Positions 12,179 through 44,460 of a DNA stretch of 64,000 nucleotides are shown here, piece by piece. The position numbers and the translations under genes were made by a program. How positions within the stretch are numbered: the first letter of the stretch is position 1; every line of letters starts with the position of its first letter. The notes below the pieces were generated by a model. It was not told where the DNA came from, searched no databases, and saw only the letters and a program-made list of their open reading frames with translations. Source of the DNA: Marsupella aquatica (lineage: Eukaryota > Plantae > Marchantiophyta); NCBI GenBank assembly GCA_973895155.1, contig OZ316892.1, forward strand, positions 13,203,270 to 13,267,269, written 5' to 3'.

Positions 12179-12857
12179 GTTTCTGCTACAAGAGTTGAAG
12201 TTGCACTGTAATTTGGACCAATAAAATTGTAGCTTCTGTCATGGATTCATTGTTAGGTTCCCCTCCCTTTCACTGGCCAGTCTTTAGGAGTATGCCACTC
12301 CTTCTACAGTAGTTAAACTGCTTGTTTGGCTGCCTTCGGTTGTGCGTCTGCCCTGGTGCCAGCCGGTTTTTGGGCACCTTGACCTTCGGTTCCCCCCCCC
12401 CCGAGTGTTGCCTTTTGTGGGCCCCCTGTTGTATGTTTTACGAGTCAAAAAAAAACTTTTAAGTCTCAAAGCTTTGAAGTTGGGAATGATGACTTTTGGC
12501 CATAAACAAACGGTCCTAACTTTTTCACAGGGTTAGTAAAACTTTGTTAATAAAACCTTTTTTTCACTAGCCTCTATAGTGACTACTGTCATGGCATATG
12601 ACCTGTCTTTCTGGCAAAAAGTTGTGTACTATTAAGAATTTGGTAGTAGGTAACTTTTTTCTATCCAGACCCTTAACTACTGTTAAGGTCCATCAAAATT
12701 GAAGCTTTGAGAAGCCTTAATGCTTCATACAAAAGAGAAAGTGTCATGGAACTGAGAGGTCCTAGGCTCAATCCCCCATCCACACTAAGGGTGTAGAAGA
12801 TATGTGTGTGTGGGTGGAATGGGTTTTGTGGGTAGTGGATGGAGTTTTGATTATCTC

Positions 12858-13054
12858 CTTGGTCCCCAGTTGCCCACTTCATGCCCCTGGTTTAATCCCC
12901 TCTTCCTCCTGGTGCAGGTCTCATGTCGGATTAGTGGGTACTCACCCTGAAATGGGTTCCTTACAATGAATGAATGTATGTGTGCCACTATTTGGGTGGG
13001 GAGAGTCTACTAAGTGTTCTTAATTTCTCATTTCAGTTCAGGACAAAAATAAAT
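12858..13054 (+). mobile_element. SINE-like dispersed repeat, 5'-degenerate copy
   Basis: Shares CTCCTGGTG..., CTCACCCTGAA.TGGGTTCCTTA, GGGTGGGGAGAG..CTACTAAGTGTTCTT and CTCATTTCAG.TCA.GAC plus an A-rich tail with 29360-29594. Confidence 0.55.
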
Positions 13055-13907
13055 AAATCTCAATCTAGTTATTTCTTTAAAAGGGAAACTGCCTCGGAAG
13101 AAGCTACACTGTTCACCGTAATTAGTGTGAGTAACACTAATTCGAGAGCGCCCGTTTTCGGGGTCTACTCGCGAATTAGTGTTAGTCACACTAATTCCGA
13201 GCAAACACTAATTACGCGCGCGGAAAATAGTGTTACGTAACACTAATTCACGTGAGTTTTTGGGTCGTATCGCGCGACGCCAAAATGACAGGATTTCAAA
13301 TGTTCTTGGCATCCAAGTCTCTCATCACAGGCTCTTTGTTAGGGTGTTCAGCCGTCACTCTCATTCAGTCTAACATTGATGCTGCTAGAAGTGGATCGTT
13401 GCTGCTTGGTTGATATTGTTGCTCATTGATCGATCCTTGTAGTCCTACTGCCAAGTTGATTGGTGGTGCTATTGTGCTGTTGAACGTGAGTTGCTATTGC
13501 GGTGCTGAACAGTCGCACCTGCTGTGAAGTTGAAGTTGCTAGCTTGAATCGTGAGTTGCTACCTCTGCAGCTATTGGAATCCATTTGGGTCATTGTTGCT
13601 CCTACTACTGCAAAGTTCATTGGATCAGTACGTGTAATCAGTCTTTGGAGAACTCTCACAGAGTAGAAATTGATAAATTGAAGTAATACGTGTAATCTAA
13701 TTTGCATCTTATACGTGTAATCAATCTCTGCTTTGAGAAACCTGAGTAGAAATTGATCATTGCCTAGATCAATTGATTGTTGGCTTTAGAAATTGTTGGC
13801 TTCAGAAATTGATTGTTGGCTTTAGAAATTGCTGACTTCATAAATCGATTGTTGGCTTCAAAAAATTGACCTCAATGAACAGACAGCTCAGAATTTAGAC
13901 GAAAAAG

Positions 13908-14693
13908 ATGTCTGTTGCTTTCTTGGCAATGAACTTGTTCGGGAAGAATGTGCATCCCATGGATGAGTCCGAGCAGTGTGTAATTTTTGCTTCAGTGTGT
14001 GCTTGCACCTTCTATGGAGGGATAGAAGAAAGGGCAAGGAAGAAATTGGAGCTCAAATTTCTGGGAGGGGGTGGTGAACGAACACACCTCCCAAGCATTC
14101 ACAACACCCATTTTATTGCACATGATTGGTATGAAGTGGAGAAACTTGTGGCAGCCCTGCACATTTCTGTCCGTAGGTTCATACATCAGATTGTGATGGT
14201 GAGTTGGGATTGGGTTGGAGCTTGCTGGGATGCTCAACAGTTGGTGGATACGCACAAATTTTGCCTTAGGCCAGCAGATGGGTATTGGAGCCTCATGCTG
14301 CCATTGCCACCAGGTGTAAGAACTAGGATTTTCCAAACCTTTGATACCCGGGCTTACTTTGTGACAGACTCAATGCCACCCGTCCAATTTAAAACTTTCA
14401 TGTCTCAATTTGAGGATTACGGAGGACAGGTGCAGAGGGAAATGGGCCCAAGTGTCACACATAATTTTGCGTGTGATTGGTTTCATGTTCAGAATCATTT
14501 TCGGGACCCAGGACAGTGGTGCAGTTCAATTACGATCGTCAGTTACAGTTGGCTTTCCAAATGCATGGAAAGGCATACTATCGTTGATGCAAAGCCTTAC
14601 ACATTGAGTGCAAAGAAATTGTTAGCTCATGGGCCAAAGACGTGGAAAGAGATATCAGGAACAAGGAGGATGACATTGAGGCCAAATTGGTGA
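13908..14693 (+). CDS. Intact 261-aa transposon-borne ORF, predicted tandem BRCT-domain protein
   Basis: ATG-to-TGA ORF with no intron and an AATAAA near 14859. It has two BRCT-like repeats: IFASV...GGG...NTHFIA...IVMVSWDWVGACW..QQLVDTHKFCL and IFQTF...YGGQV...VTHNFA...IVSYSWLSKCM..HTIVDAKPYTL, each with the GG, TH and W-x3-C pattern. Confidence 0.7.
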   Translation: MSVAFLAMNLFGKNVHPMDESEQCVIFASVCACTFYGGIEERARKKLELKFLGGGGERTHLPSIHNTHFIAHDWYEVEKLVAALHISVRRFIHQIVMVSWDWVGACWDAQQLVDTHKFCLRPADGYWSLMLPLPPGVRTRIFQTFDTRAYFVTDSMPPVQFKTFMSQFEDYGGQVQREMGPSVTHNFACDWFHVQNHFRDPGQWCSSITIVSYSWLSKCMERHTIVDAKPYTLSAKKLLAHGPKTWKEISGTRRMTLRPNW

Positions 14694-15286
14694 AGATCCG
14701 TAAGCGAAAGGATAACTGCTGGAAATAGAATCATTGACAACATGATATCTGAGCCAACATTTAAAATTTTGTATAGTACAAAATTAAGAAGTCTTTCATT
14801 TTGTACAATTCCCTAAAATAGATGTTGGTACCTGTTGTGCCAGTGTACTCTCAAATTGAATAAAATGGCCCATTGTTGAACTCTAGCAGGTCGACACTTG
14901 TCCATGTATTGTTTATTTTACTTGGTGAACATTTTTAATAGTGTACATACTTTTAGATTCCATACAGTAACAGCACATTTACCAAGTCAAAATGAACGAG
15001 CATTCACTTTAGTGCAATCTAAAGTATAATAGATACAATTTTTTAATTGTCCTTATCTTTTATTTTTCAAAATTGCGTGCAACACAATTTTGGAATGCTT
15101 CCAAAGAGCTGGCCCCTAAACTGTTCACAATATTTTATTCCTCTAATGATTGGGAATTAAATTGCTCCTGACAAAATTGTGGAACACTTCCCACTTGCTA
15201 GCCGCTACAGTATTCATAGTACTATTTTAGTCCACATTGGTCTACAAAATAATGAGCTCTCTTTTGAAAGTCTATCTATCAAAAAA

Positions 15287-17242
15287 TTAAATCATTCCAG
15301 CAAGTCTACGAAACTGGGAGCTTAGATGTCCTTGTGCAAAAGGAGCCGTAGGAGTGGGCTCTACAACAATGTCAACAGCATTATCAATGGGCCCATTGTC
15401 TGGAGTCTCAAAATCACTTTCATTGTGAGAATCTTCCAATGAATCACTTTCATCACCAGAATTCTCAAAATCACTAGCACTGGTATCAGATTGGGCACAC
15501 GATTCATCACTAGTATCAGATTGGGCTTCACTTGCATTCACTTCGGTTACAACAACATAGCCCTGACCTTCCTATGGCTGATCATTTGGAACACAAGGAG
15601 GGTCATCAACAGCAAGGGGTTGTGGTTGTCCATTGACTGCTGCTTCAAAAGTGCCTCGAAACTTGACAATAATTCTCTGTAAGTCGGGAGTGAGCTGTTG
15701 CTCAGTCCAAACTCCTTCCAGGTTCAGGGAAAGGCCTCTCCGAATCATTGCCTTTCGAGCATAGCTGATACCATAATGTTTATCGACCATACTATTCACA
15801 TCTCTCACTGCATCAGCTGCCAGCTGAAGAAAAAACCGTTTACGTGGATTTTTCAATGCTCCACTAGTCCCTGCCCTACCATCTCCTTGCCACCGGTTGT
15901 CACGAATCCGGGACATCTTCTTCTCCTCCCATCGGCGGGTCCAGGCATCTTTGATCTTGGATATCACAAAAGAGTCACAGGGCTGTATCAGATCTGTTGC
16001 ATTGTCTGGGAAACGACGGACCTCAGTGTTGATGCGTTGCAAAGCCTCCTGTGCTGCTGGCAGAATCTTGTGACCTGGATAATTATCCATCCACTGCACT
16101 TTTTTCCCTCCACTCACGTCAGCAAAACTTACTTTTGGTTCCTTGTAATACTCAACCAAGCAAACACTATTCATGAAACCTTTCACTGTGCTACGATAAC
16201 AAACTCCATCTGGTAATGGCAACTTTATGCCTTTGATAGGGTAGCTGCACAAGGTGTTCTGAAAAATCAGGAATGGAATACCAATTTTACCTTTGGGACC
16301 ACCAGTTACCTTTACCATCATGGTGATGCCCACTCCTCCTGAAACCACATCTACATACTTTACGTTTTGATCCCCTCTAAACCCTAGTGTACGGCCATTG
16401 TCCATGTTAATCTGAAAATGAGTTTCATCCATATTTTCTTGCAGATTTTCGTCTAATGTGCCATCTCAAAATCCTCTGCATAAGACTCCCATGTGAAAAG
16501 CAACCTCACGTTCAATGAATTCACGCTTTGCTCCAGAGACCTGTAGCTTCCCTGTTTGTGACCTATGCACAATATTATGGGCCTCCTGAAATGTCTGAGT
16601 CCATCTAGAGGTGATGCGATCGATGAGAAGTTCAGGACTGTCACCCAAGACAGTCCTGGCATTGAAAAGAATATGAGGGTTAGTCAGTAGAGCATTTTTG
16701 GCCACTAATTTCAATACCCTTGGAGAGAATTTCAGGCCAGCCCTTTTGAGTCTTTGGAAGTCTTCTCTCACTATGGGGTATAACCATTCAATCCATGGAT
16801 GTCGCTTTCTTCCTCTCCCTGGTCGTACCTTCATCTGAATTCTATTCCTTCCACCCACATCTGACCGGCTAATTGATAATCCTTGCACTTTGTACTCTTC
16901 CAGGATGCTCTCTCGGTCCTTCCACCACCTCCCTGCCTTCATGAGATTTGCTGATCTTGACCTCTGCCTAAAAATATCTGGAAATTGTTTCACAGCAGAG
17001 GACTTGATCTTCTCCTCGGTACCCCTCTCTTGCACAGCGGCAATCATCCAATTGATCACCTTCAAATGTTGGGCCTTGGTGGCAACATTTTGTGCAGCCC
17101 GACCAGACAATACAAGCAGTGGCATCTCTGGAGCGGGAGCTGGAGCAGCTACAACAGGTTCGGTGCTAGTCTCACCAGTGGATGGGTCATTGGCAGCTGG
17201 AATTCTTGCCCAAGCTGCAAGCAAGGGTGACCCTTGGAACAT
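15287..17242 (-). pseudogene. pogo/DDE_1-type transposase with CENP-B-like HTH, interrupted by two in-frame stops
   Basis: ORF-track pieces 16466-17257, 15572-16432 and 15287-15541 share one frame, separated by TGA (16466-16468) and TAG (15572-15574). The first ATG is at 17242. HTH-like region: GRGRKR..W...DFQRLKRAGLKFS...SRWTQTF. Catalytic motifs: NMDETH, WMDNY and IQPCD, with 36 residues between D2 and D3. The C-terminal tail is acidic. Confidence 0.88.
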
Positions 17243-17811
17243 CCTTGCTCTATCCAATAAATCAAACCCCTAAAACTTTGTGGAAAGCAATTCAAAGCAA
17301 ATTAATTCACTCTGGACCCACCGGTCTATTTCTAGGCATGCAAAACTCTGACTACAATAATTGAAGTTCAATCAGAAATTGGGTTGGAGCGTTTGATGAG
17401 ATTAAAACTAATTTAGCAAGGATTGAATCTTAAGAAGACGGGAGCTTTAGCAAAATGCCAGCAAGAAACAAGATAAAATCTGAATTCTGTGGGTAGTGAG
17501 TTCTTTTTGTTAAAGAAGGAATATCTTAATCGTAAAAAGTTTGAGCTTGTAGGTAAAGAATCCGGGAAGAGAGCAAGAATAAATGTGAATTTAGGGAGTA
17601 GTGTACAATTTTGCTTGTCATGCAATAAAAAATATCTAAATCATAAAGAATGGGGCCAGTTTACGTCCTCTTACCTTGCACTGTAGGGCTGTACGCTGCA
17701 GCAATGCCAATGAGCCTCCACTCCCTAGTGATGCAAGGCTCACTATAGCGATGCCAAAGAGAATGTACGCTTTCAACTCTAGAGATGTCAGTTGATCACA
17801 CTTTCCCAATA

Positions 17812-17938
17812 ATGCCCTTGACTGCATGCCAGAGTATCCTCGCTACTGTAGCTCTGCCATGATTGATGAGCACAATGCCCTTGACTGCATGCCAGAGTAT
17901 CCTTGCTACTGTAGCTCTGCCATGATTGATGAGCACAA
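17812..17938. repeat. Two-copy 63-bp tandem repeat inside the transposon
   Basis: ATGCCCTTGACTGCATGCCAGAGTATCCT.GCTACTGTAGCTCTGCCATGATTGATGAGCACA occurs twice with one mismatch. Confidence 0.9.
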
Positions 17939-20299
17939 CGTGAGCGCTGGTTCAATGTGCACTGACTAGAAAAAGATCCCACTTTAGCCTCCACGACTAT
18001 AGCGCTCTCCGCACCTTGAAATAAAACCTCCAAAAACTATTGCGCGCGACACTAAATGTTGCGGAGCCCTCAAATCTTCTAGCCCTGACTCCACGACTAC
18101 AAAGCTTTGACTCCACTACTACAGAGCTTCCAGGTGCTCTATAGTGTGTTAAACAAAATATTTAAAACAAAACCTCAAAAAAAGATTTTAGAAACCGACA
18201 CCAATTAGTGTTACTTTTGCTTCTAGACCAAGTTCACATAAATTAGTGTGACTAACACTAATTTGGACATAACACTAATTCCGGCATAACACTAATTACG
18301 GTGAACAGTGTAGTATTGTTGCTACAACTACAGTAGTTTGCATAATTTGGGGCCACAAATCCCTGGAAAGTGCCATAAAATATTCCCTCAAAGCACCATA
18401 ATGGCACTGCCATGCTGCCTGTTCCCTGCTACCTGGGCACATGATCTAGATATAAATATTAGCAACATGACCACAGCTCCGTCCAACTAGCATGAGTAAG
18501 TTGTAGTTCATCTCCCTAGGGAGGCTTAGGTACTAAGTTTGAAAACCCCTCAAGCAATTGTACCTTTTAATCAATTGAAACCCCACCCAAAAGTGGGCTC
18601 CATGCAAGCTCTTGACACTTTAGAAAAAATACAGCGTGATTTCAGTTTCCGCTGGCAGTCAAAATGCCATGAATGCACTTCCACAAATTTATCTCCCTGA
18701 ATCTTGCAGGCAGTGGAAAAGTGTCCTTTTTAATACCTTGGCCAAAAACTGAAGGATGCCCTAACTCTTTTTGTCCAGGAGCCACCATGTGTCTTCATTG
18801 CCTTGCCACCTGGAGCTGGGTACAGAGACTCCGTCGCCAAGTTGCTCCCCGCAACGCCCCCTTTTGCCTGCACTTTGGTGGTTGCACTATGAGATTGTGC
18901 TGGATTGTAGACTAATCATTCTCATGAGGCTAGACGCACATATAGGGGGCCCACTTTCTGAACCCCCACCGTACCCTGGTCTGCCCACCCAAATATTGTG
19001 GCCCGACATTTTTCATCCCAAGGCCAGCAGTCCTCTGGCCAACAGTCCTCCTCTCAACAAGCTTGCAGGTCAAACTCACCAAGGTCCATCAATTGACCCT
19101 CTCAACCATCTATACCATGCTTTGTGGAAGTTTGGTAGGGACCCCGGGTAGGGAATAGTGTCCAGAACTGGTAAGAAATGCTTATTGCTTTCAATTTATC
19201 ACCCCCAAAATTGCAAATTGTTAGTTGCGGTCATGAAACTTTCGCAAGGAATGGTCATTTCAATATATTGATTTTTACTAGGTGTTGTTCTCTGAATGCA
19301 GTATTGTAGTTACATCAACATATTCTGTTGTTACCTTCATTGTCACAAATAATTGATCTGAAAAAGAAGCAAGAGAATCAATCTCAGCACCTCTGAGCTA
19401 AACAAAGTGTAGAGAAGGCAGCAAAGCGTTTACAAGAGGATATTCATCGCATCAAAACTCAGAAGGTTGATGACTTGAATTCTCAGTCTCAACACTACAA
19501 CTGGCTGGATCGATGAGAGGGGTTATCTATGAGATGTGATTAACTGATCTGACCAGATTGTAGCAAAGGCACTCCTACTCCTTTGGTTATTGCTTTCAAT
19601 GTCAAGCGGATTGAATCAAACCGTCTTGAAGTTTTTTCTGCCTATGGCAAACATATGCACGAGTAAGAATTGCTTTTTTCTCCTTCTCGGCTCTTTCTTT
19701 AAGTCTTGTTTTTAATTAAGGTGGGAAATAATGTTGGTCGGTGATAAGGTGAAGGCTCTAGAGTTAGTTCCCTTTATCTTGTTGAGGAGTGTTTTTTTTT
19801 AAATGTTAAGTTACTCTTTGTGTAGCAAATCTTATTAAAATTGGTTTACTGTTGTCTGCTGTATCCTCCCAAGGGGTCTCTGAAAAATGACAGAAAATTC
19901 TTGTTTTGAGGAAGCTCATGTAGCATACGGTTCAGACCATGGCCTGGGTATTCATGTCCAGCTCTCATGGTACACTGTGGCAGTGTTGGGCACCTCTAGA
20001 GGACACAACCACAAACCTGAGTGTTTGCTTCTTGATGTTTTTTCCAACCACCCGTCGTGCTTCTTGAGGAGGTTTGTATGAAGTATAGATGCACATTCTT
20101 CTTTGTGACTTCTTCTTCCTATTCTTGTGCTGCAATTGACTTTTATGAACATTCTCTATACATTTTCCCATTTTGACATGACGTCATCTCAAAATGAGGT
20201 TACTCTTGAGAGGAAGCGAGACTCAATTATTCTCGGCCTAGTGACATTTCTTGTATGTGGGCAGCCCGATTCATCTCAACGTGGTGTCATTGCCTTTAT

Positions 20300-21270
20300 T
20301 GCAACAAGAGGTCTTGTTGAAGAGAAAGCGAGAAAGGCCTCCAAAAAATAGTGGATGGCAAGATCTGAGTGTGCAAGCATCTCCTATAGGGCAACAGGAG
20401 GTCCCGTTGAAAAGAAAGCGAGGAAGACCTCCAAAAAACACTCGGCCAATAGATGGCAAAATCTGAGTGTGCAAGCATCTCCTATAGGGCAACAGGAGGT
20501 CCCGTTGAAAAGAAAGCGAGGAAGACCTCCAAAAAACACTCGGCCAATGGATGGCAAGATCTGACTGTGCAGGCATCTCCTATGGGGCAACAGGAGGTCC
20601 CGTTTCAAGAAGAGAAAGTGTGGAAGGCCTCCCAAAAAACACTCGACCAGTGGATGGCAAGATTCGTTTGAGGGTGTAGACATCTCCTACGGGGCAACAG
20701 GAGACCCCATTGAAGAGATAGCGAGGTAGGCCTCCAAAAAACACTCAGCCAATGGATGACAAGATTAGTCTGAGTGTGCAAACATCTCCTATGGTGCAAC
20801 AGGAGGTCCCGTTGAAGTGAAAGCAAGGAAGGCCTCCAAAAAATACTCAACCAGTGGATGACAAGATTTGTCTGAGTGTATAGGCATCTCCTATGGGGCA
20901 ATAGGAGGTCCCATTGAAAAGAAAACGCTGAAGGCCTCCAACAAACACTTGGCGAGTGGATGACAAGATTCGTCTGAGTGTACAGGCATCTTCTATGGGG
21001 CAACCAAAGACCCCGTTGAAGATAAAGTGAGGAAGGTCTCCAAAAAACACTCGGCCAATGGATAGCAAGATTAGTTTGAGTGTGGAGGCATCTCATATGG
21101 GGCAACATGAGGCCCCACCGAAAAGAAAGCGAGGAAGGGCTCGAAAACTTCCAGTTGTGATGAATAGTTCATTATACATAGATGAAAGTTGTCCGAGTGT
21201 CCAGGCATCTCCTATGGAGCAACAGGAGGCCCCACCAAAAAGAAAGTGAGGAAGGCCTCGCAAACTTCCA
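20300..21270 (+). repeat. About 10 copies of a ~100-bp coding-type tandem repeat encoding AT-hook motifs; decayed
   Basis: The unit translates as LSVQASPIGQQEVPLKRKRGRPPKNTRPIDGK. Copies are separated by frameshifts and carry stops. Confidence 0.85.
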
Positions 21271-23520
21271 GTTCTGATGCCGAGTACTTCAATCCAAAGC
21301 AGTCATAGTTTGGCCCAACTTGCACCCAAGCCAGAATCTTCAGGAAGAAGAGCACCAAGATGACCTCAAGGTTGTGGGAAGATTCACAACCCGTCACTCC
21401 CCTTGCCATTGGTCAAAGGAAGGACATGATGTAATCTGCATTTCTGCATTTTTGCTCTAGATTGTACGTAAAAAGCCATGCAGGAGTAGTACATGTGATT
21501 TGTTCATGGAAGTTTGGTTGCACACGCACCACCTCTAGAGCAATGAGATACCTGATCCAAACATTAGTGTTTTCGTGGGTCTGTGTGTAAGTAACTGACT
21601 ACTCATTTGGAATTGATGAGATACATCGGCCTACATTGGTGGACGACAACTGTGTTCTTTGGGTGTTCTGTTTGTGTTGGTTGTGAATCTAAACCCACTC
21701 TGTTCATCTCATACTCTTGAAAAGTTTGTCGTAGCTATTGTCTCTTGCGAGAAGAGAGCACCCGTTGTGGTGTCTGTTCCTTTTGCATAGCGAAAAAATC
21801 ACAGGTTGGGAATCATAATTACTAGTCAGGTGTGCGGAAATGTTTGCGGGAAGAACTCTTCTGTTTTTCAGTTCTGTTTTGTGGAATCTACTGTACTTGT
21901 CATCCCAGTCTATTAAACACATTCTTCTTGGTCATGTCATGCTAAAATCTCACTGAAGTTGTTAAGATGGATGTTGTCATTCATAGTGTGTGAGCATGGG
22001 TGCCAATGCTTTGTTTCACAGTTCTAAGGATTGGTTCATTAGCTCCAAATGAAGCGTGCAAGAATATGGCAGTTGTGAAATCCCCTTGGATCCTCTGGGA
22101 TGCAATCAAATATCTGGAAATTTAAATGCCTGAGAGATTTTTATTTTTCCTAGTTTTAGTAAAAGTAAATGAAAATCTTTCTAACGAGGTGTTGCAGATC
22201 TTGGTGGGGGCACTATGTTCCCAGAAGAAGTTATCTTACTAAAAAATCACCATGAGAAACTAAAGTTGGGGTCTAGGCTTGTAAGTGAAGTCTCTAGACC
22301 ATGACAAAAAAGCCCCACAAAGTTTATGTGGATGGAAAGAAGGATAGGACATGTATATCAAAATGATAATCATGCAAGATAATTTTTGTCATCATTTCTA
22401 TTAGGCTCCTATAATTAAATCTGGCTGTACAAGTTTAGCAATTTGTCCCCATGGTAGACATGCTCTCTTGTGACGTCTAGTCCAAACCTAACAGGAGGCA
22501 AAGTTCAACTACATTGCCACAAAGTGCCCCTCCAATAGTGGGCAGTGGAAGTTCTCCCACCGGTCCACTACTGGGCCTAGCCCGGAGCAACTGTAGGCCC
22601 ACTTTATGAACCCCCACCCTACCCTGGTCTGCACACCCAAATATTGCAGCGGGACATTTTTCATCCCAAGGCCAGCAATCCTCTGCTCCACAAGCTTGAA
22701 GATCAAAACTCACCAAGATCAATCAATTGGCCCTCTCAATTCTAATCGAATGGCTATGCAATCACTCTGGAAAGTGCAGTCAAACAATTCAACTTTTCTT
22801 GTGGTTCAAACCACGGCTGGCCAAATTTAATAAGTGTGAAAATCGGAAACCCTAAGTCCCTTTCAAAGGACCTGGATGGGCAGGTGCCTCAAAATGCTCG
22901 CTAAATCTCCCCAATGGAGATGTTGTTTGGTTTGCACAGGTGGGAGTGCTCGTAGGGCCCTTAACCCAATCTCCCAGATGTCTAGGATTTGTAGGATTTG
23001 TAATTTGATCTAACCCTACTCAGGAATCCTAACACGAATATCAGTTTCACATGCGCTTCTGTTATCTTTCTCCCCAATGGAAACTCTGTGTAAGTGACCG
23101 AACATTTCCAATCTGTGAAGCTTATTTTAGATAACATCAGATTATTCCTACTTGCCAGGTTTAGGTCAGACAATGAGCTTGCATTTGTCCCAAATTGTTG
23201 CCAAATTTCATGCCCGCTTACCAGAGCTCATACATTGTCGTCCAGTGTGGCATCAGTGGCTTTCCTTGATTCCGTGCGAGCCTTGGCACCAGGTCAAACC
23301 ATTGCCACATCATCCCTCTGAACCTCATCTCACAGGGGAATACTTGCAACAGCCCAAACATGTGGTCTAGATGGTTTAAGCAATCTTAGCCTGATTACAA
23401 ACATTTTGTAACTTTATTAATGTACCTGCACATAATGCATATACCCACGCGAGAAACTTCGTTTTCTTCCAAAAGTGTGATGGCCTCACTTATTTGTATA
23501 ACAAAGCTTCATCTGCAAGG

Positions 23521-29359: not shown

Positions 29360-29594
29360 GGTGGCTTAGGTCAGTTAGCTAGGGAATTGCACCTGGAGTT
29401 CTGGTTCTCTACTCAGCCCTTGGTTGTCCACTTGTGGCTCTGCTTTAGTCTCTCTCCTCCTGGTGTGGGTCCTTGTGGGATCAATGGGGGCTCACCCTGA
29501 ACTGGGTTCCTTAAATTAATGTATGTCACAACTGGGGTGGGGAGAGACACTACTAAGTGTTCTTCCTCATTTCAGCTCAAGACTGGAAAAAAAA
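29360..29594 (+). mobile_element. tRNA-derived SINE-like element
   Basis: Degenerate A-box-like GGTGGCTTAGG at 29360, B-box-like GGTTCTCTACTC near 29403, and an A-run at 29587-29594. The body is homologous to 12858-13054. Confidence 0.55.
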
Positions 29595-32082
29595 TATGCA
29601 CCTTTTTCTTCAGTCTTACAAGTATTTCCAGATGTCCACCAGAAGACACAAACTCTTTGTACAAGTGTAGACACACTTCTGCATAACTATCAACACTTTT
29701 GTTATTGCAGATTTCGTTGCACTTATGTTATAGGATTGTACGGCAGGTAATGTACAGTCCAAGGAGGGGCCAAAGCAGTATTTCAATAAGTTCAATATGG
29801 TCAGTATTGCACCTATCACTTAGTGCAAACCAGGCAACCAGGGGGATCTTAGGTGAGTGCATGATTGCCAACTTGCATTTATCACGTTGAGCAAACTTTA
29901 GTCTGTTTAGACTGCCATTCCAGAAAGTTATGGCAGGACAAAAGTGGTCACATTTTCCCCATTTTAGAAGTTTTGTCAGAACTATGGTAACCTGGAAGTG
30001 ACCTATTGTGAGAAGAACATGCTGGCAGCATTATTTGTCATCAAGTTCTGTGGATTAATTTCTGACAATCAGAGGAAATTCATAGGTGGGAAACTGAAAA
30101 CAGAGAACCCAGAGAATTCTGACCAGACCTGAGTAATGTCATATAGAGGAGTGAATCTAACAAATGTTTGTCAGTGACAAAAAAAATATTGACCCCTGAC
30201 TAGGATGTACCAAGCTTTGCTTAGGGGACAGTGGCTGGATAAACCACACCTGTCACTATAAAAGCCTCATTCCATGTCTCACTACTCACCATAAAAGGTG
30301 GAACACTAGCACCTTTTGTGAAGTAGTTGTCAAAAAAATGTTTTGCAGTCAGCACCTTTTGTTGAACTCAAAACCCATTTCTGAACTTGTACTCTTTAGA
30401 ATGAGAGCTATTGGTTACCCGTAGCCCTTTATAGGGGCAGGTGTGGTTTAAGTGTTTACGTGAGTTTCCCATAATCTCTTGCCCGGAAATAACCTTTTTC
30501 CAGACAATATTCAGGTACTATAATGGAGATATGGGCAGGGGTTCTAGCCCAAACACTGCTCCAAGAAAACTAAAAAAGAGCTTATCAATAGGGCATCTCA
30601 AATCTGGCAGTTCATGGAAAAAAATGACACCCGAAACTACCAGTTTTGGTCACGGGTTAGGAGTGTGCAGACACTCATGTTTGTGCCTGCCACTTGTCTC
30701 TTGGGAATTTGTCACTAAGTGCAATCGGAGGCAGAAAGGAGAAGATTGAGACACCCTAATGCTTCCCCACTGCCCCATCAAGGTTTTCTCACCTTCTGTT
30801 CACAAGGTACATGCTAGTCATACTTATAAAACGCAAACCTCAAGCTAGAGATGGGGTGTCTAGACTTCTAGAGTGAAACCTCTAGACTATAAGAACATAT
30901 TTTTTAAGGTTTTTTATTCTTAGCTAGTGTGGGGAATGTAAAGCAACTCTAAGGGAGGAGATGCTAGGAAAATTCTTTGTTAGTTTTTCCTAGATTACAT
31001 CCTGACCGTCAGATATCCCTAGATTTACTGATGACTGTTAAATTCTGGCAAATGAGGTCCATGATTAGGTGGGAAAGTGGCTAATGGCATTAAAAAAATG
31101 TAGCAAATGTTAGCCAAAAGTGACAAACAATTTGTGGGGAGGTGGAATTTGGCTAAATTTTGCACCTAATTTTTTTGGCTAATTTTTGCACTTAAACTTA
31201 AGTGCAAAATGGGTGACTGTAACTCTAGACTCTAACTCATGGGTACATGTATGTCAAATGCTGATGAAGCATGATTTTTGTCATGGATTTTATTTACATT
31301 CAGGCTAGTAACCTCAGACCGCCAAATATTATCCTGGGCATCTCTCGTTTCCTCCCAAGGGGGAGAGTGTGCACTTAGAGAGGGCAGAGTGTCCTGGAAT
31401 CATCAGGAGATTGGACTTTTGTGTCTGGCCTGAGTCGTGGAAGTGAAGTGCTGGAAGTGCTGCAGTCGAGGCTGGTCGGGACATTTATCACGATGAGCAG
31501 AAGACAGAAAATGTTTCACTGCTTTCGATTCACCTGAGCGAGGGGAGGGTTGCACGCGCGACGTATGTACTCAGGAACGAACACTGGCTTGGCCAATTGC
31601 GAACAGTCCGGAGATGGTGGGTCGATCGATTGATCGATCGAGGTGCCCTTGACTCGGCATCGTGTACGGTCCTGAAGTTTGTGCTGAGGGCAGAGTCTGT
31701 TCGTTCTGGCGGCTTGATTGATACCAGGGAGGGAAGGAGGTGAGGAGAGGAGATCTCGATCGGGATCGAGGTGCTTCCGGGCGCTTCGGTAGATTAGATT
31801 TTTGAGCACATTCGTAATCTGCAATGCGGTCCAGGATTGGATGCTTCAGAGCGATGATTAAGGCCACGTTGATACTGTAATGGAGGGAAGGGTTGGTTAC
31901 GCAGAAGCAGTTTCGAGGTTGGCGGATGATCCAAATGTAAAACACTGGTTGGAGTTTCGGAACGTTAATGCTCACGCCTGGTAGACATTGCTATGTTCAT
32001 CTCGTGATATCAGATACCGATAGAGCAGAGCAGAACAAGAGATTTGTCGTACATTTCTGCATAAGCGAGTGGCGTGGCCAAG

Positions 32083-40746: not shown

Positions 40747-41941
40747 TACTTAAACCACCACTGGCCGGGCCATATAAAGGGGAGAAGTGTCCAAGACCTT
40801 TGTCCTTCTTCATATGGTTCTCCTCTAAGGTTAAATTTTGCTCCACAATTTTACACAATTTCAGGAAAAAGTACTAAAAAATGGTGAAATCTCTCTAACC
40901 ATGGCTAGTGGCTTAAAGTGAAATCTCTCTAACCATGGCTAGTGGCTCTTTAAGCCTGGCTGTACAGTAAAGTAGTCTCCACCTTGGTGAATTAACTCAT
41001 GATTAACCACAAATGATTTGTACCTTACAAATTGATCGAGAAAGGAGGAGAGGAGAGGAGAGGAGAGGAGCAGAACGCGAGTGCGTGGGAGCAACGGAGA
41101 TGTGCAGTGTTGATTCGTATGTGGGTGTGCTCGACAATTGCGATGCGGAACGCAATTCATGAAATCTGCCAGAGAATTGGAAAGCGCAAATCTTGAAATT
41201 GGTGCAGCACCGGAATTCTGTCTTTGCTTCATTCGTGTCATCTCCATTTCCGTCTCCTGCATCGCTTTCTCTGCCACGACGACTACTCCAGCAGAAGAGT
41301 GTCGTCTTCTTCTTCACTTGGAGAGTTTGAGGATTTCTCATGTTTCATGCATCAATCAATCGAGCAATATATAATAAATAAGTGTTAAGTCTCTCGCTCG
41401 CCGGTTTGCTCTCTCCGCCGCCCTGCCCACATTTTGAGCTCTTGAAATGAAAAACATCGTCAACCAAAGAAGAAGCTGAAGCTGGACGAAGAAAGAGCGG
41501 GAGTGGAGAAGAGAGGCGAGACTACATAATTATGTTCTGACTTGACAACATAGAATGTGGAATGCAACGCCGGAGTCGGACGGGGAAAGAAGAAGAACGA
41601 ACGAAGGAAATTAACCGACTTCGGTAGTGAGTGAGGAGCAGAAGGACCTGCGAACGGGCATGTCCGCTACGGCGAGAGAACAGTAAGCGCACTTGGCAGC
41701 AGGAGGGGACGGGGGTTGTGGTGAGTTCAATTTTTGCAGCTGATAGGAATAGCAGGAGGTAGAGGAATCCAGGGCCATAGTGGGGTGGGGGGGACGGTAC
41801 GCAGTTTCTTGAGATTCTCTGGTGTGTTTCTTTTGCTCGAAATCAAGGATTTGGTTCAGTCGGAGAGAGGCCCGGAGCCGAGGGAAAATTTGAGTTGCAT
41901 GTTGAGAATCAGGGAGGCTGGATTTCTTCTGGGACTCGCGG

Positions 41942-44460
41942 ATGGATCCGAGGCTGGATCATTCGAGGATGGATCCGCGGATGGATCTACGGATGGATCC
42001 GCGGATGGATGCCCGGGGATTGGATCCTCGCATGGAGGCGGCGAGAATGGATCCTAGGTTGGATGGGAGGATGGAGGCGAGAATGATGCCGCAGCAGCAA
42101 TCGGGAGCAGATAATCGCTCCTTTGAGTTCGGATTCACGACGGCAGGTGGCCGGAGAGAGGTGCGGACGCTCGAGGATTTATTTCAGGGTTATGGAGTAC
42201 GAATAGCCACACTAGCGAAGATGACAGAGATGGGGTTCACAGTGAGCACACTTGTGAATATGACGGAAGCGGAGCTTGATGATATTATACAAACGATTTC
42301 GGACATTCTTCAGATGGAGCTATTGGTTGGAGAGCGTTATGGAATTAAGTCAGCGGTTAGAGCAGAAAAAAGGCATATAGACGAGGAGCTGGAGCGACAA
42401 CGACTGGAGCTTTTAACTAAGAGCGAACGGAAGCGTAAGCTCGATGAGGTTGCCGGTGTTGCTTTTTCGTCTAAGGAAGGTAGGCCACCGCCAGCGCACT
42501 TGCGAGTATAGGATGCTCCAATTCCCAAGCTCGAAGAATCTCGGAATTGTCGTTATTAATTTCATACGTAGGAGCGAGAATTCAAGAAGATGAGGAAGAT
42601 TCATCTCTCTTGGTGTGGATTGGGTTGACGACTTGTCATCCTCAGAAATCCTCATTGGTATAAAATCCCCTGACCATTTTGAAAGAATGGGTTTCTTTCG
42701 CCCTGTTACAGCGTTTCATGTGGAGTCATCCGTGAATACCAGGCATCACTAAGTGGATATCTGGTATCATTGCCTAGAATCAATGGTCTGTTCCCCAGGC
42801 ATTTTAAAATCAAAGCTGCGCGCCGCGGTCCCCGTGCCGTTAAGCCCTTCCCAGGACGAAGATTGGTCATTAAAGTATTTCAATGCAAGGGTTTAGCAAG
42901 CACAAATCACAAATCAAAGTCTCGACAAACTCTCTCACCCACTCTTGAAACCCTTTTAATCGGTATCTTTGTCTATGGTTGTTCCTTTTCTTGAAAGATG
43001 AAAGTGAGATCAAAGAATTGCTAGTCAGTCTAATGTGATGCACTGTTTGTGAGCACTTCCGTATGACTTCCTAGGACTTGGGATTCCTCGACGGGTCTCA
43101 CGCAATGAATATCTCCTACCCTTCATTTTTCGTTTCTCTGAAGTTAGAGAGGAGAAGTACTATCTCCAAGGATTTTAATGATTCCTGAAACGATGTCTTA
43201 AAACAAGCATCATTGTATCGGACCGTAATGGGATTGAATATACTGAACTTGGTTTCACAGTTTAACAAGATGGGATTTCGTTTCTGCAAAGAATGTCATG
43301 TGACCGCTACAGGTCTACCAAGTACATGTCCGTCTACTCTTCTTACACAGATACTGCAATGCCTTTTCACACATCCCTCTCCAAGTGGCTCCACTGCTAA
43401 AGGTTAGACGGGCTGGAGCAGAATGGTTTTTGGCGTTGTTCGTAGGTTGCTAATGTTTCACATGTTTTGTATTGTGTGCAGGTACAGGTGGTGGTGCAAG
43501 TGAACAAAGGAGAGAAAGTGCAATGATGATGCCGGAAGCCATCTCTCCTGTTAATGCCCTGAATTTGAATTCTAAAGAACCAACGCTACTCCTGGGGGCT
43601 GGTCATAGCTCACTCACTCCAGGCCTTCTTGCCCTCACTGAACAGAGCAGCGACAGTGATGACAAGCGGTCAGGGAAGAAAAAGCAGAAGAGAAGGCGGC
43701 CGAAAGAGCATGGAGAAGATGGAGAAGATAGGCCGAGGGAGCACCCGTTTATTGTTACCGAACCTGGTGAAGCGGCCAGGGGAAAGAAAAATGGATTAGA
43801 CTATTTGTTTGACTTGTACGAACAATGCGGCAAGTTTCTGGAGCAGGTTCAACAACTCGCGAGGGAAAAAGGAGAGAAGTGTCCCACCAAGGTCAGCCTG
43901 TTTTAGCTTTTGCTTGAGAATGTCATCACCGCCTCCGTAGAAAATAATGATGTCTTTGCGTTTAAGTCGCTGTGAATCAAATCATGAATTTCAGAGATGA
44001 TGGCTTCTTGTTTGATCCCGTGTGCCTATTCCTGTCTTGCCTCACTAGGTAGAGGACCGATGCTAGTTCTTATGTTAAGTATCAGATGAATTTGGAAGCA
44101 AGTACTCGGAGTTAATTGTCAACAGTCGTTTTGCAGGTAACAAACCAAGTGTTTCGACATGCCAAGCATACGGGTGCTGGTTACATCAACAAACCAAAGA
44201 TGCGGCATTATGTGCACTGTTATGCTCTTCACTGTTTAGACATTGATCAGTCTAATGCACTAAGAAAATTGCACAAAGAAAGGGGCGAGAATGTTGGAGC
44301 CTGGCGTATGGCTTGTTATGGCCCCTTAGTGTCCATGGCCAGAGACAATGGGTGGGATATTGAGGGCCTTTTTAACAGGAATGATAAGTTGCGAATCTGG
44401 TATGTTCCCACAAAACTTCGACAGCTTTGCCACATAGAGAAGGGCAAATTTGGAGAATAG
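41942..44460 (+). CDS. LFY: LEAFY/FLORICAULA transcription factor, 3 exons
   Basis: Exons 41942-42479, 43482-43891 and 44137-44460, with the two conserved LFY intron positions. SAM domain: [11 protein letters not shown]...[10 protein letters not shown]...[19 protein letters not shown]-binding domain: [27 protein letters not shown]...[40 protein letters not shown]...[13 protein letters not shown]. Confidence 0.98.

Follow-up and report, generated by a model that had tools for sequence, protein, structure and literature searches.

A 64,000-nucleotide stretch of the liverwort Marsupella aquatica (contig OZ316892.1, positions 13,203,270 to 13,267,269; hereafter the window, whose own numbering is used throughout) contains a 5.2-kb DNA transposon at 13107-18310, in which perfect terminal inverted repeats (TIRs) enclose a transposase gene and a convergent second open reading frame (ORF). 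The element is a Mover-family (DD36D) pogo transposon and represents a two-gene form of this known family in a new host group. That the second ORF encodes two BRCT repeats is well supported by its sequence, repeat 2 being clear and repeat 1 weaker. The interpretation that we favour, with a probability of roughly 0.45, is that this BRCT pair was captured long ago, has been kept by selection and would act as an adaptor or decoy in the host response to DNA breaks.

The two 22-bp TIRs, at 13107-13128 (+ strand) and 18289-18310 (- strand), are complementary at 22 of 22 positions, and the TA target-site duplication lies outside each end (13105-13106 and 18311-18312). The TIR sequence is found at exactly two places in the window, which are the two ends of the element. 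Subterminal repeats with a 9-bp ACACTAATT core are present at the left end in both orientations (13117-13255) and recur with the same core at the right end (18198-18288); those on the left are putative, and likely, transposase binding sites. The transposase gene occupies 17242-15287 on the minus strand, and its product matches Pfam DDE_1 (expectation value, E, 1.7e-7) and carries a DD36D triad, with 36 residues between the last two Asp of the window protein. In the window it is broken by two in-frame stops, at 16466-16468 and 15572-15574; the second is a Glu codon in the contigs of all three sequencing runs that cover the site, and an acidic low-complexity tail (15287-15571) follows it. Because the two transposase ORFs lie in one frame, with a single stop between them, a frameshift was rejected. 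No DNA-binding domain was detected in the transposase by Pfam hmmscan. The first-pass annotation of this DNA had described perfect 22-bp TIRs with a TA duplication around a pogo-type transposase convergent with an intronless ORF of 261 codons, and this description holds.

The Mover family, described by Gao et al. 2020 (PMC7386202), is defined by DD36D together with an undetected DNA-binding motif, and its hosts are red algae, stramenopiles and Rhizaria, Lemi alone being reported there from land plants. The 20 published Mover rows measure 1668-3316 bp and have TA duplications and one transposase each, and none of these rows comes from a land plant. The element shares with them DD36D, DDE_1, the undetected DNA-binding domain, the TA duplication and a short TIR starting with CACTG (supplement 3 of PMC7386202), and its TIR holds GTAATTAGT, as do the Phytophthora and Plasmodiophora rows; the likeness of the TIRs was judged by eye. 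It differs from Mover in its size (5.2 kb versus 1.7-3.3 kb in 20/20 published rows), in its land-plant host and in its second convergent gene (13908-14693), the described Movers listing a transposase alone.

The search for transposase homologues returned 128 proteins. Spacing in the triad is 36 in 83 and 39 in one of the 103 with at least 380 residues, while 19 are off-pattern. Among the 120 listed, the nearest are from Riccia sorocarpa (45-59% identity), and oomycete, diatom, plasmodiophorid and unnamed homologues mostly show 37-53% identity; taken without the unnamed ones, those from oomycetes, diatoms and plasmodiophorids lie at 42-50%. A quick tree of 42 of the 103, comprising the best-ranked and the named ones, with published Mover sequences and other pogo families absent, joins the window transposase to all six Riccia proteins that it includes (Shimodaira-Hasegawa-like approximate likelihood ratio test, SH-aLRT, 99), and Plasmodiophora and Phytophthora proteins adjoin this group. 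Mover/DD36D transposases are present in at least two named liverworts, Riccia sorocarpa (P0002, P0003, P0011, P0030, P0071, P0078 and P0082) and Calypogeia fissa. The Calypogeia protein (P0031) is placed with Spongospora in the same tree, apart from the Riccia clade, a split that may reflect separate acquisitions. P0006 and P0090 are Mover-type transposases with an N-terminal SCAND3-like zinc finger. No BRCT was found among 121 transposase-side proteins by phmmer or among the 26 scanned by Pfam, so that no fused transposase-BRCT form was seen. Viral and prokaryotic sequences, scanned with the alignments of the transposase and of the ORF and with the TIR, gave no match.

The second ORF (13908-14693, + strand) is open over 261 codons in the window copy and has no intron; when the 2150-nt segment was simulated with a Markov model, 1 run in 1000 produced a frame of at least 240 codons. 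As a whole, it matches Pfam BRCT_2 with E 1.6e-6 (28.7 bits against a cut-off of 27.3, best stretch at residues 145-231), and below their cut-offs PTCB-BRCT (E 0.017) and RTT107_BRCT_5 (E 0.042). The tandem arrangement proposed by the first-pass annotation agrees with this whole-ORF match and with the alignment of the two repeats to each other (score 74 against a shuffle maximum of 51, 0/2000 shuffles as high; 27% identity), but its Pfam support fades when the repeats are taken singly: repeat 2 (about residues 145-233; 14340-14606) reaches 23.7 bits, under the BRCT_2 cut-off, and the weakly supported repeat 1 (about residues 30-120; 13995-14267) has no Pfam match. A weak alignment to the tandem BRCT of PTIP (E 0.043) extends from repeat 1 over the linker into the first part of repeat 2. 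The whole ORF has seven matches of solved structure, each of them a DNA-damage BRCT; Pol lambda, Brc1, PTIP and microcephalin are represented, and the top match, the Pol lambda BRCT, aligns with E 0.001 to repeat 2 over 86 residues. True Pol X BRCTs are known to diverge past the reach of BLAST (PMC12362244). In the Atlas, BRCT clusters make up most neighbours of the whole ORF protein and of repeat 1; every neighbour scores below 0.9, which provides a lead only. Structure models built from one or two sequences were poor (predicted local distance difference test, pLDDT, 32 and 44); the strand-helix order of repeat 2 fits BRCT, and Foldseek and VIA-align on a low-pLDDT model were uninformative, with a best Z of 3.5. 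Matches of a two-repeat profile to ribosome-inactivating proteins (E 0.02-1.4) were set aside as chance, being absent with the ORF itself. By these likenesses, the parent may have been either a duplicated Pol lambda-type domain or a PTIP/MDC1/BCP-type pair.

Public sequencing data show that the ORF is not confined to the window copy. The element was followed in four runs carrying two species labels and coming from two studies, which contain 55-74% of its words; none is recorded as RNA, and one is possibly the source of the window itself. Depth was taken from contigs, which drop variants, and is a rough guide only. In run X2, the flank contigs have zero differences to the window and a depth of about 20, which serves as the single-copy reference; relative to it, the ORF bins stand at 2.5-3.1x and the transposase bins at 2.3-4.4x. 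The contigs indicate 2-3 copies of the interior per genome, the ORF and the transposase being equally deep, and the ORF is common to these 2-3 element copies in runs of both species labels. X2 resolves two of them, with 5 and 34 differences in 526 nt of transposase and 1 and 34 in roughly 350-380 nt of non-coding DNA.

The ORF had also been called intact, which stands as far as the 261 open codons go. However, contigs from three of the four runs (X3 is without cover there) show, at full depth, one extra base following 14628, and the window ORF has therefore probably shifted frame over its final 21 residues. The alternative-frame tail (14629-14728), in frame in the read copies, is acidic and basic and includes a KIRKRK stretch that resembles a nuclear localisation signal. 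Read alleles also restore family-like residues, namely Ile at 186, Thr at 130 (as in P0126, the protein fragment described below) and Glu at 229. The window copy is a decayed member of its family, with two transposase stops and a one-base gap in the ORF, and the term intact therefore fits its sister copies better.

The family has evidently been mobile. The left end of the element (13154) reaches about 145x single-copy depth in X2, contig loose ends accumulate at both TIR tips in 4/4 runs and one joint runs from 13350 to 17923, omitting both genes; from this it follows that members of the family have transposed and given rise to many short derivatives. The terminal segments 13107-13260 and 18198-18310 are present in roughly 100 or more copies per genome and make up a large family of short non-autonomous derivatives. 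In all four runs, loose ends also pile up one base beyond the TA (13104 C, 18313 G; at the right end 18 versus 14 in X2 and 9 versus 8 in X3), hinting at a CTAG target preference for the family.

One could ask whether the ORF is the relic of another mobile element that inserted into a Mover and lost its own ends. A 2-kb segment is extra relative to typical Movers of 2.0-2.6 kb (PMC7386202), and the sole homologue of the ORF looks like a truncated fragment of unknown context. We nonetheless regard such nesting as very improbable. No convincing inverted pair brackets the ORF (the best is 22 nt at 82%, with one arm within the ORF), and no nested insertion is visible; the other frames tested in the ORF segment hold no transposase, reverse transcriptase or helicase remnant; and there is no extra depth over the ORF. 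Joints excising the ORF alone are absent among those listed (15 of 86 and 12 of 80).

The origin of the ORF appears to be old. Against 1.84 billion representative proteins it has one match, the 72-residue fragment P0126, with 40% identity over residues 107-171, which run from the last part of repeat 1 through the linker into repeat 2. No relatives were found among 160 candidates of near length or, in a weak search, among 11 longer proteins. A metagenome scan with the ORF returned two loci from 23 stretches, both rejected as fortuitous peptide matches that lie in unrelated frames. Among the 1.84 billion representatives, no conserved plant BRCT gene matches the ORF at E 0.001; that a conserved repair gene of plants was captured recently is disfavoured, since such a parent should have scored. 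The CpG observed/expected ratio is 0.35 in the ORF, 0.30 and 0.45 in the two transposase halves and 0.43-1.23 in the eight host exons tested, and none of 1000 host-codon resamplings had CpG as low as the ORF. In neutral simulations, 66/1000 frames stayed open at 10% divergence and 0/1000 at 40-80%, the range needed to reach 45-24% protein identity. Taken together, the lack of a close parent, the loss of CpG and the open frame speak for an ORF that has long been resident in methylated element DNA and has evolved under constraint; both the long residence and the protein-level constraint are indicated, and they would fit an accessory gene kept by selection.

These same observations bear on the possibility that the ORF is passive cargo. 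On this view, one Mover lineage picked up all or part of a host BRCT gene that was evolving fast and was peculiar to its lineage; the ORF would since have been carried through 2-3 copies without any role in transposition and would now be decaying. We consider this unlikely, though it is a serious contender. The copy number is low and the window copy has decayed, the protein collection offers no homologue to accompany the sister transposases of Riccia, and a host parent gene with less than 85% identity would escape the comparison of read contigs. A survey of 3203 active TIR clusters from 1007 plant genomes also lends it weight, as 335 Pfam domains occur there once only and BRCT-type domains three times, as singletons in MULE, CACTA and hAT and, in a supplement that is perhaps incomplete, with none in Tc1/Mariner (PMC12973397). 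On the other hand, the CpG loss of the ORF is as deep as that of the transposase, yet its frame is open; the missing match to a conserved plant BRCT gene is unlike a recent capture; and the ORF shows no surplus depth of the kind that a near-identical parent would give. Its convergent layout, with a candidate intron and polyadenylation signal of its own, also speaks against mere carriage. The candidate intron, read from sequence alone, lies in the 5' untranslated region (13628-13898, + strand), with a GTACGT donor and several AG acceptors between 13882 and 13898, and the candidate polyadenylation signal would be the AATAAA at 14859-14864 (+ strand). It should be noted that accessory and cargo genes are hard to distinguish (PMC6431247).

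Comparison of the copies provides a further view of constraint. In X1, a contig joins diverged upstream alleles without a gap to codons 1-129, and shows 7-9 differences per 80 nt upstream versus 5-7 per 387 nt of ORF (Fisher p at most 0.004). In X2, positions 13936-14294 of the ORF form one contig, which has 2 differences and a depth of 44, so that two copies would differ from each other at about 0-3 sites; the copies are near-identical over this segment although 6-10% apart elsewhere. This identity is too high for protein-level selection alone and suggests gene conversion, templated gap repair or another pairing of copies.

The binding surfaces of the BRCT pair have diverged. Phosphopeptide-binding BRCTs carry a Ser or Thr in the first loop. 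In the weak PTIP alignment, Gly37 of repeat 1 stands in this loop, after strand 1, where Ser/Thr would be expected, and the RTVK motif reads EVEK, with the alpha-2 Lys79 retained and Glu76 at the Arg position. The contacts named for MDC1 are Arg1933, Lys1936 and Gly1899 (PMC11014961). The first-pass annotation had envisaged targeting to phosphopeptides such as gammaH2AX, a proposal that is weakened here, as the alpha-2 lysine alone is retained among the pocket positions. The Pol lambda BRCT, for its part, binds Ku70/80, with R57 and L60 of helix 1 as key contacts (PMC12056208). From the alignments, the canonical pocket for phosphopeptides and the residues with which Pol lambda binds Ku both appear mostly lost, neither surface being clearly intact. 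The ORF resembles the tandem-BRCT damage readers (PTIP/PAXIP1, MDC1, Brc1 and plant BCP1-4) in keeping the lysine of the RTVK motif; unlike them, it has Glu for the motif Arg and no first-loop Ser/Thr, its repeats resemble each other (27%) and other domains are absent. Unlike Pol lambda and the Pol X family, it has two BRCT copies and no polymerase, and R57/L60 are lost in repeat 2.

Loss of both surfaces would suit an accessory gene selected for a task outside repair, for instance as a binding module that partners the transposase, like MURB with MURA and the Myb-like protein in PIF/Harbinger, or chromatin, or in counter-silencing, as VANC. Such a gene would share the signs of selection described above, and binding between transposase and accessory protein is documented in MULE, PIF/Harbinger and CACTA (PMC12973397). 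We find a role of this kind distinctly improbable. The seven solved structures that match the whole ORF all belong to DNA-damage proteins, and single-gene Movers transpose without such a gene (PMC7386202). Moreover, plant BCP1 reaches damage foci and acts in the damage response without binding gammaH2A.X, so that a lost pocket does not exclude a repair role, while BCP4 binds despite a partly conserved pocket (PMC11014961).

A role of the captured BRCT pair in the host break response could be pictured as follows. Transposases of this kind are established to bind the ends of the element, excise it, insert it at a TA and leave a double-strand break behind. For Sleeping Beauty, the excision break is repaired by end joining or homologous repair, and the transposase binds Ku70 (PMC7827188). 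The BRCT ORF would derive from a host repair gene captured long ago by the Mover lineage; as it has no catalytic part and has mostly lost the phosphopeptide pocket, its product would work by protein-protein contact. With its putative nuclear signal, the BRCT pair could serve as a nuclear adaptor or competitor in the host break response. As a decoy, it would compete with host BRCT proteins at the excision break and tilt repair from end joining towards templated gap repair, so that the donor copy would be restored and the copy number would rise. This decoy action is the sub-mechanism that we prefer, although taken on its own it is quite unlikely. The points in favour of a selected role in the break response are, beside the lack of a close parent, the CpG loss with an open frame, the equal depth of both genes, the X1 contig and the restored residues, the candidate intron and polyadenylation signals, the lack of second ends around the ORF and the solved matches, all of which are DNA-damage BRCTs.

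Several findings weigh against this interpretation. Only 2-3 full copies are present, so there is no sign that the gene has brought the element success. No homologue of the ORF was found among the proteins of Riccia sorocarpa, the source of the six nearest transposases, although annotation gaps could hide one; the two-gene element proposed by the first-pass annotation is real, but a two-gene system common to the whole family is not supported. Three host exons have CpG values of 0.43-0.57, near that of the ORF, and the simulations would point to selection somewhere in the past of the ORF, not within the element specifically; a fast-evolving, lineage-specific parent gene stays conceivable. The near identity over 13936-14294 makes the contrast between upstream and ORF divergence unclean evidence, and of nine ORF variants, among the 40 of 610 substitutions listed, three are synonymous and six are not, two of these variants falling in one codon. 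In repeat 2, the counterparts of R57 and L60 of Pol lambda are Gln160 and Thr163, and an RxxL in repeat 1 fits these Ku contacts with a gap only. Finally, non-transposase domains are common in plant TIR elements and mostly occur as singletons (PMC12973397).

Other features complete the picture of the element and its surroundings. A candidate intron in the 5' untranslated region of the transposase gene, predicted from its GTAAGA donor and TTTTAG acceptor, would occupy 17270-17674 (- strand). Upstream of the same gene lies a 63-bp tandem duplication, 98% identical (17811-17936). Rfam gave two matches, both under the gathering score and taken as chance. A second dispersed high-copy repeat adjoins the left side of the element (12840-13055) and is 74% alike to 29394-29596, and a degenerate tandem array of roughly 90-100-bp units extends over 20293-21279. 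The window also holds compact plant genes, among them a LEAFY gene (41906-44457) with repeated MDPR units at the N terminus of its product; its top solved match is a moss protein, but it has His/Arg, as in Arabidopsis, where the moss protein has Asp/Cys.

Transposons with a transposase and a separate accessory ORF within their ends are known, such as MuDR (MURA/MURB), PIF/Harbinger (Myb-like protein), CACTA and VANDAL (VANC), and the gene layout of MuDR is convergent, as in the window element. These elements differ from the present one in belonging to other superfamilies and in having non-BRCT accessory proteins that are conserved family-wide. Within the wider Tc1/mariner group, the Tec and TBE elements of ciliates also carry extra ORFs; unlike the Mover described here, they have DD34E, three ORFs (including a recombinase and a zinc-finger protein) and long or telomere-bearing ends, and no BRCT is reported for them in the accessible part of PMC7325037. 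We found no described case of a BRCT gene in a transposon, in a search that lay outside most subscription journals and Repbase reports.

Cut-and-paste transposons rely on the host for break repair, and the way in which such a non-replicative element multiplies depends on the fate of the donor break, which may be joined or else refilled from a template. The known accessory genes of plant TIR elements aid the transposase or counter silencing, and none targeting repair was found in the literature searched. That a liverwort Mover lineage turned a captured repair module into a dedicated second gene, a tandem-BRCT decoy or adaptor that steers repair of the excision break, is a doubtful proposition. 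If true, it would provide a cut-and-paste eukaryotic element carrying its own modulator of repair pathways, and a small handle on repair-pathway choice in plants with possible use in homology-directed editing. Even if the BRCT gene is a passive passenger, the element extends Mover to land plants and documents gene capture in a superfamily whose members usually carry a transposase only.

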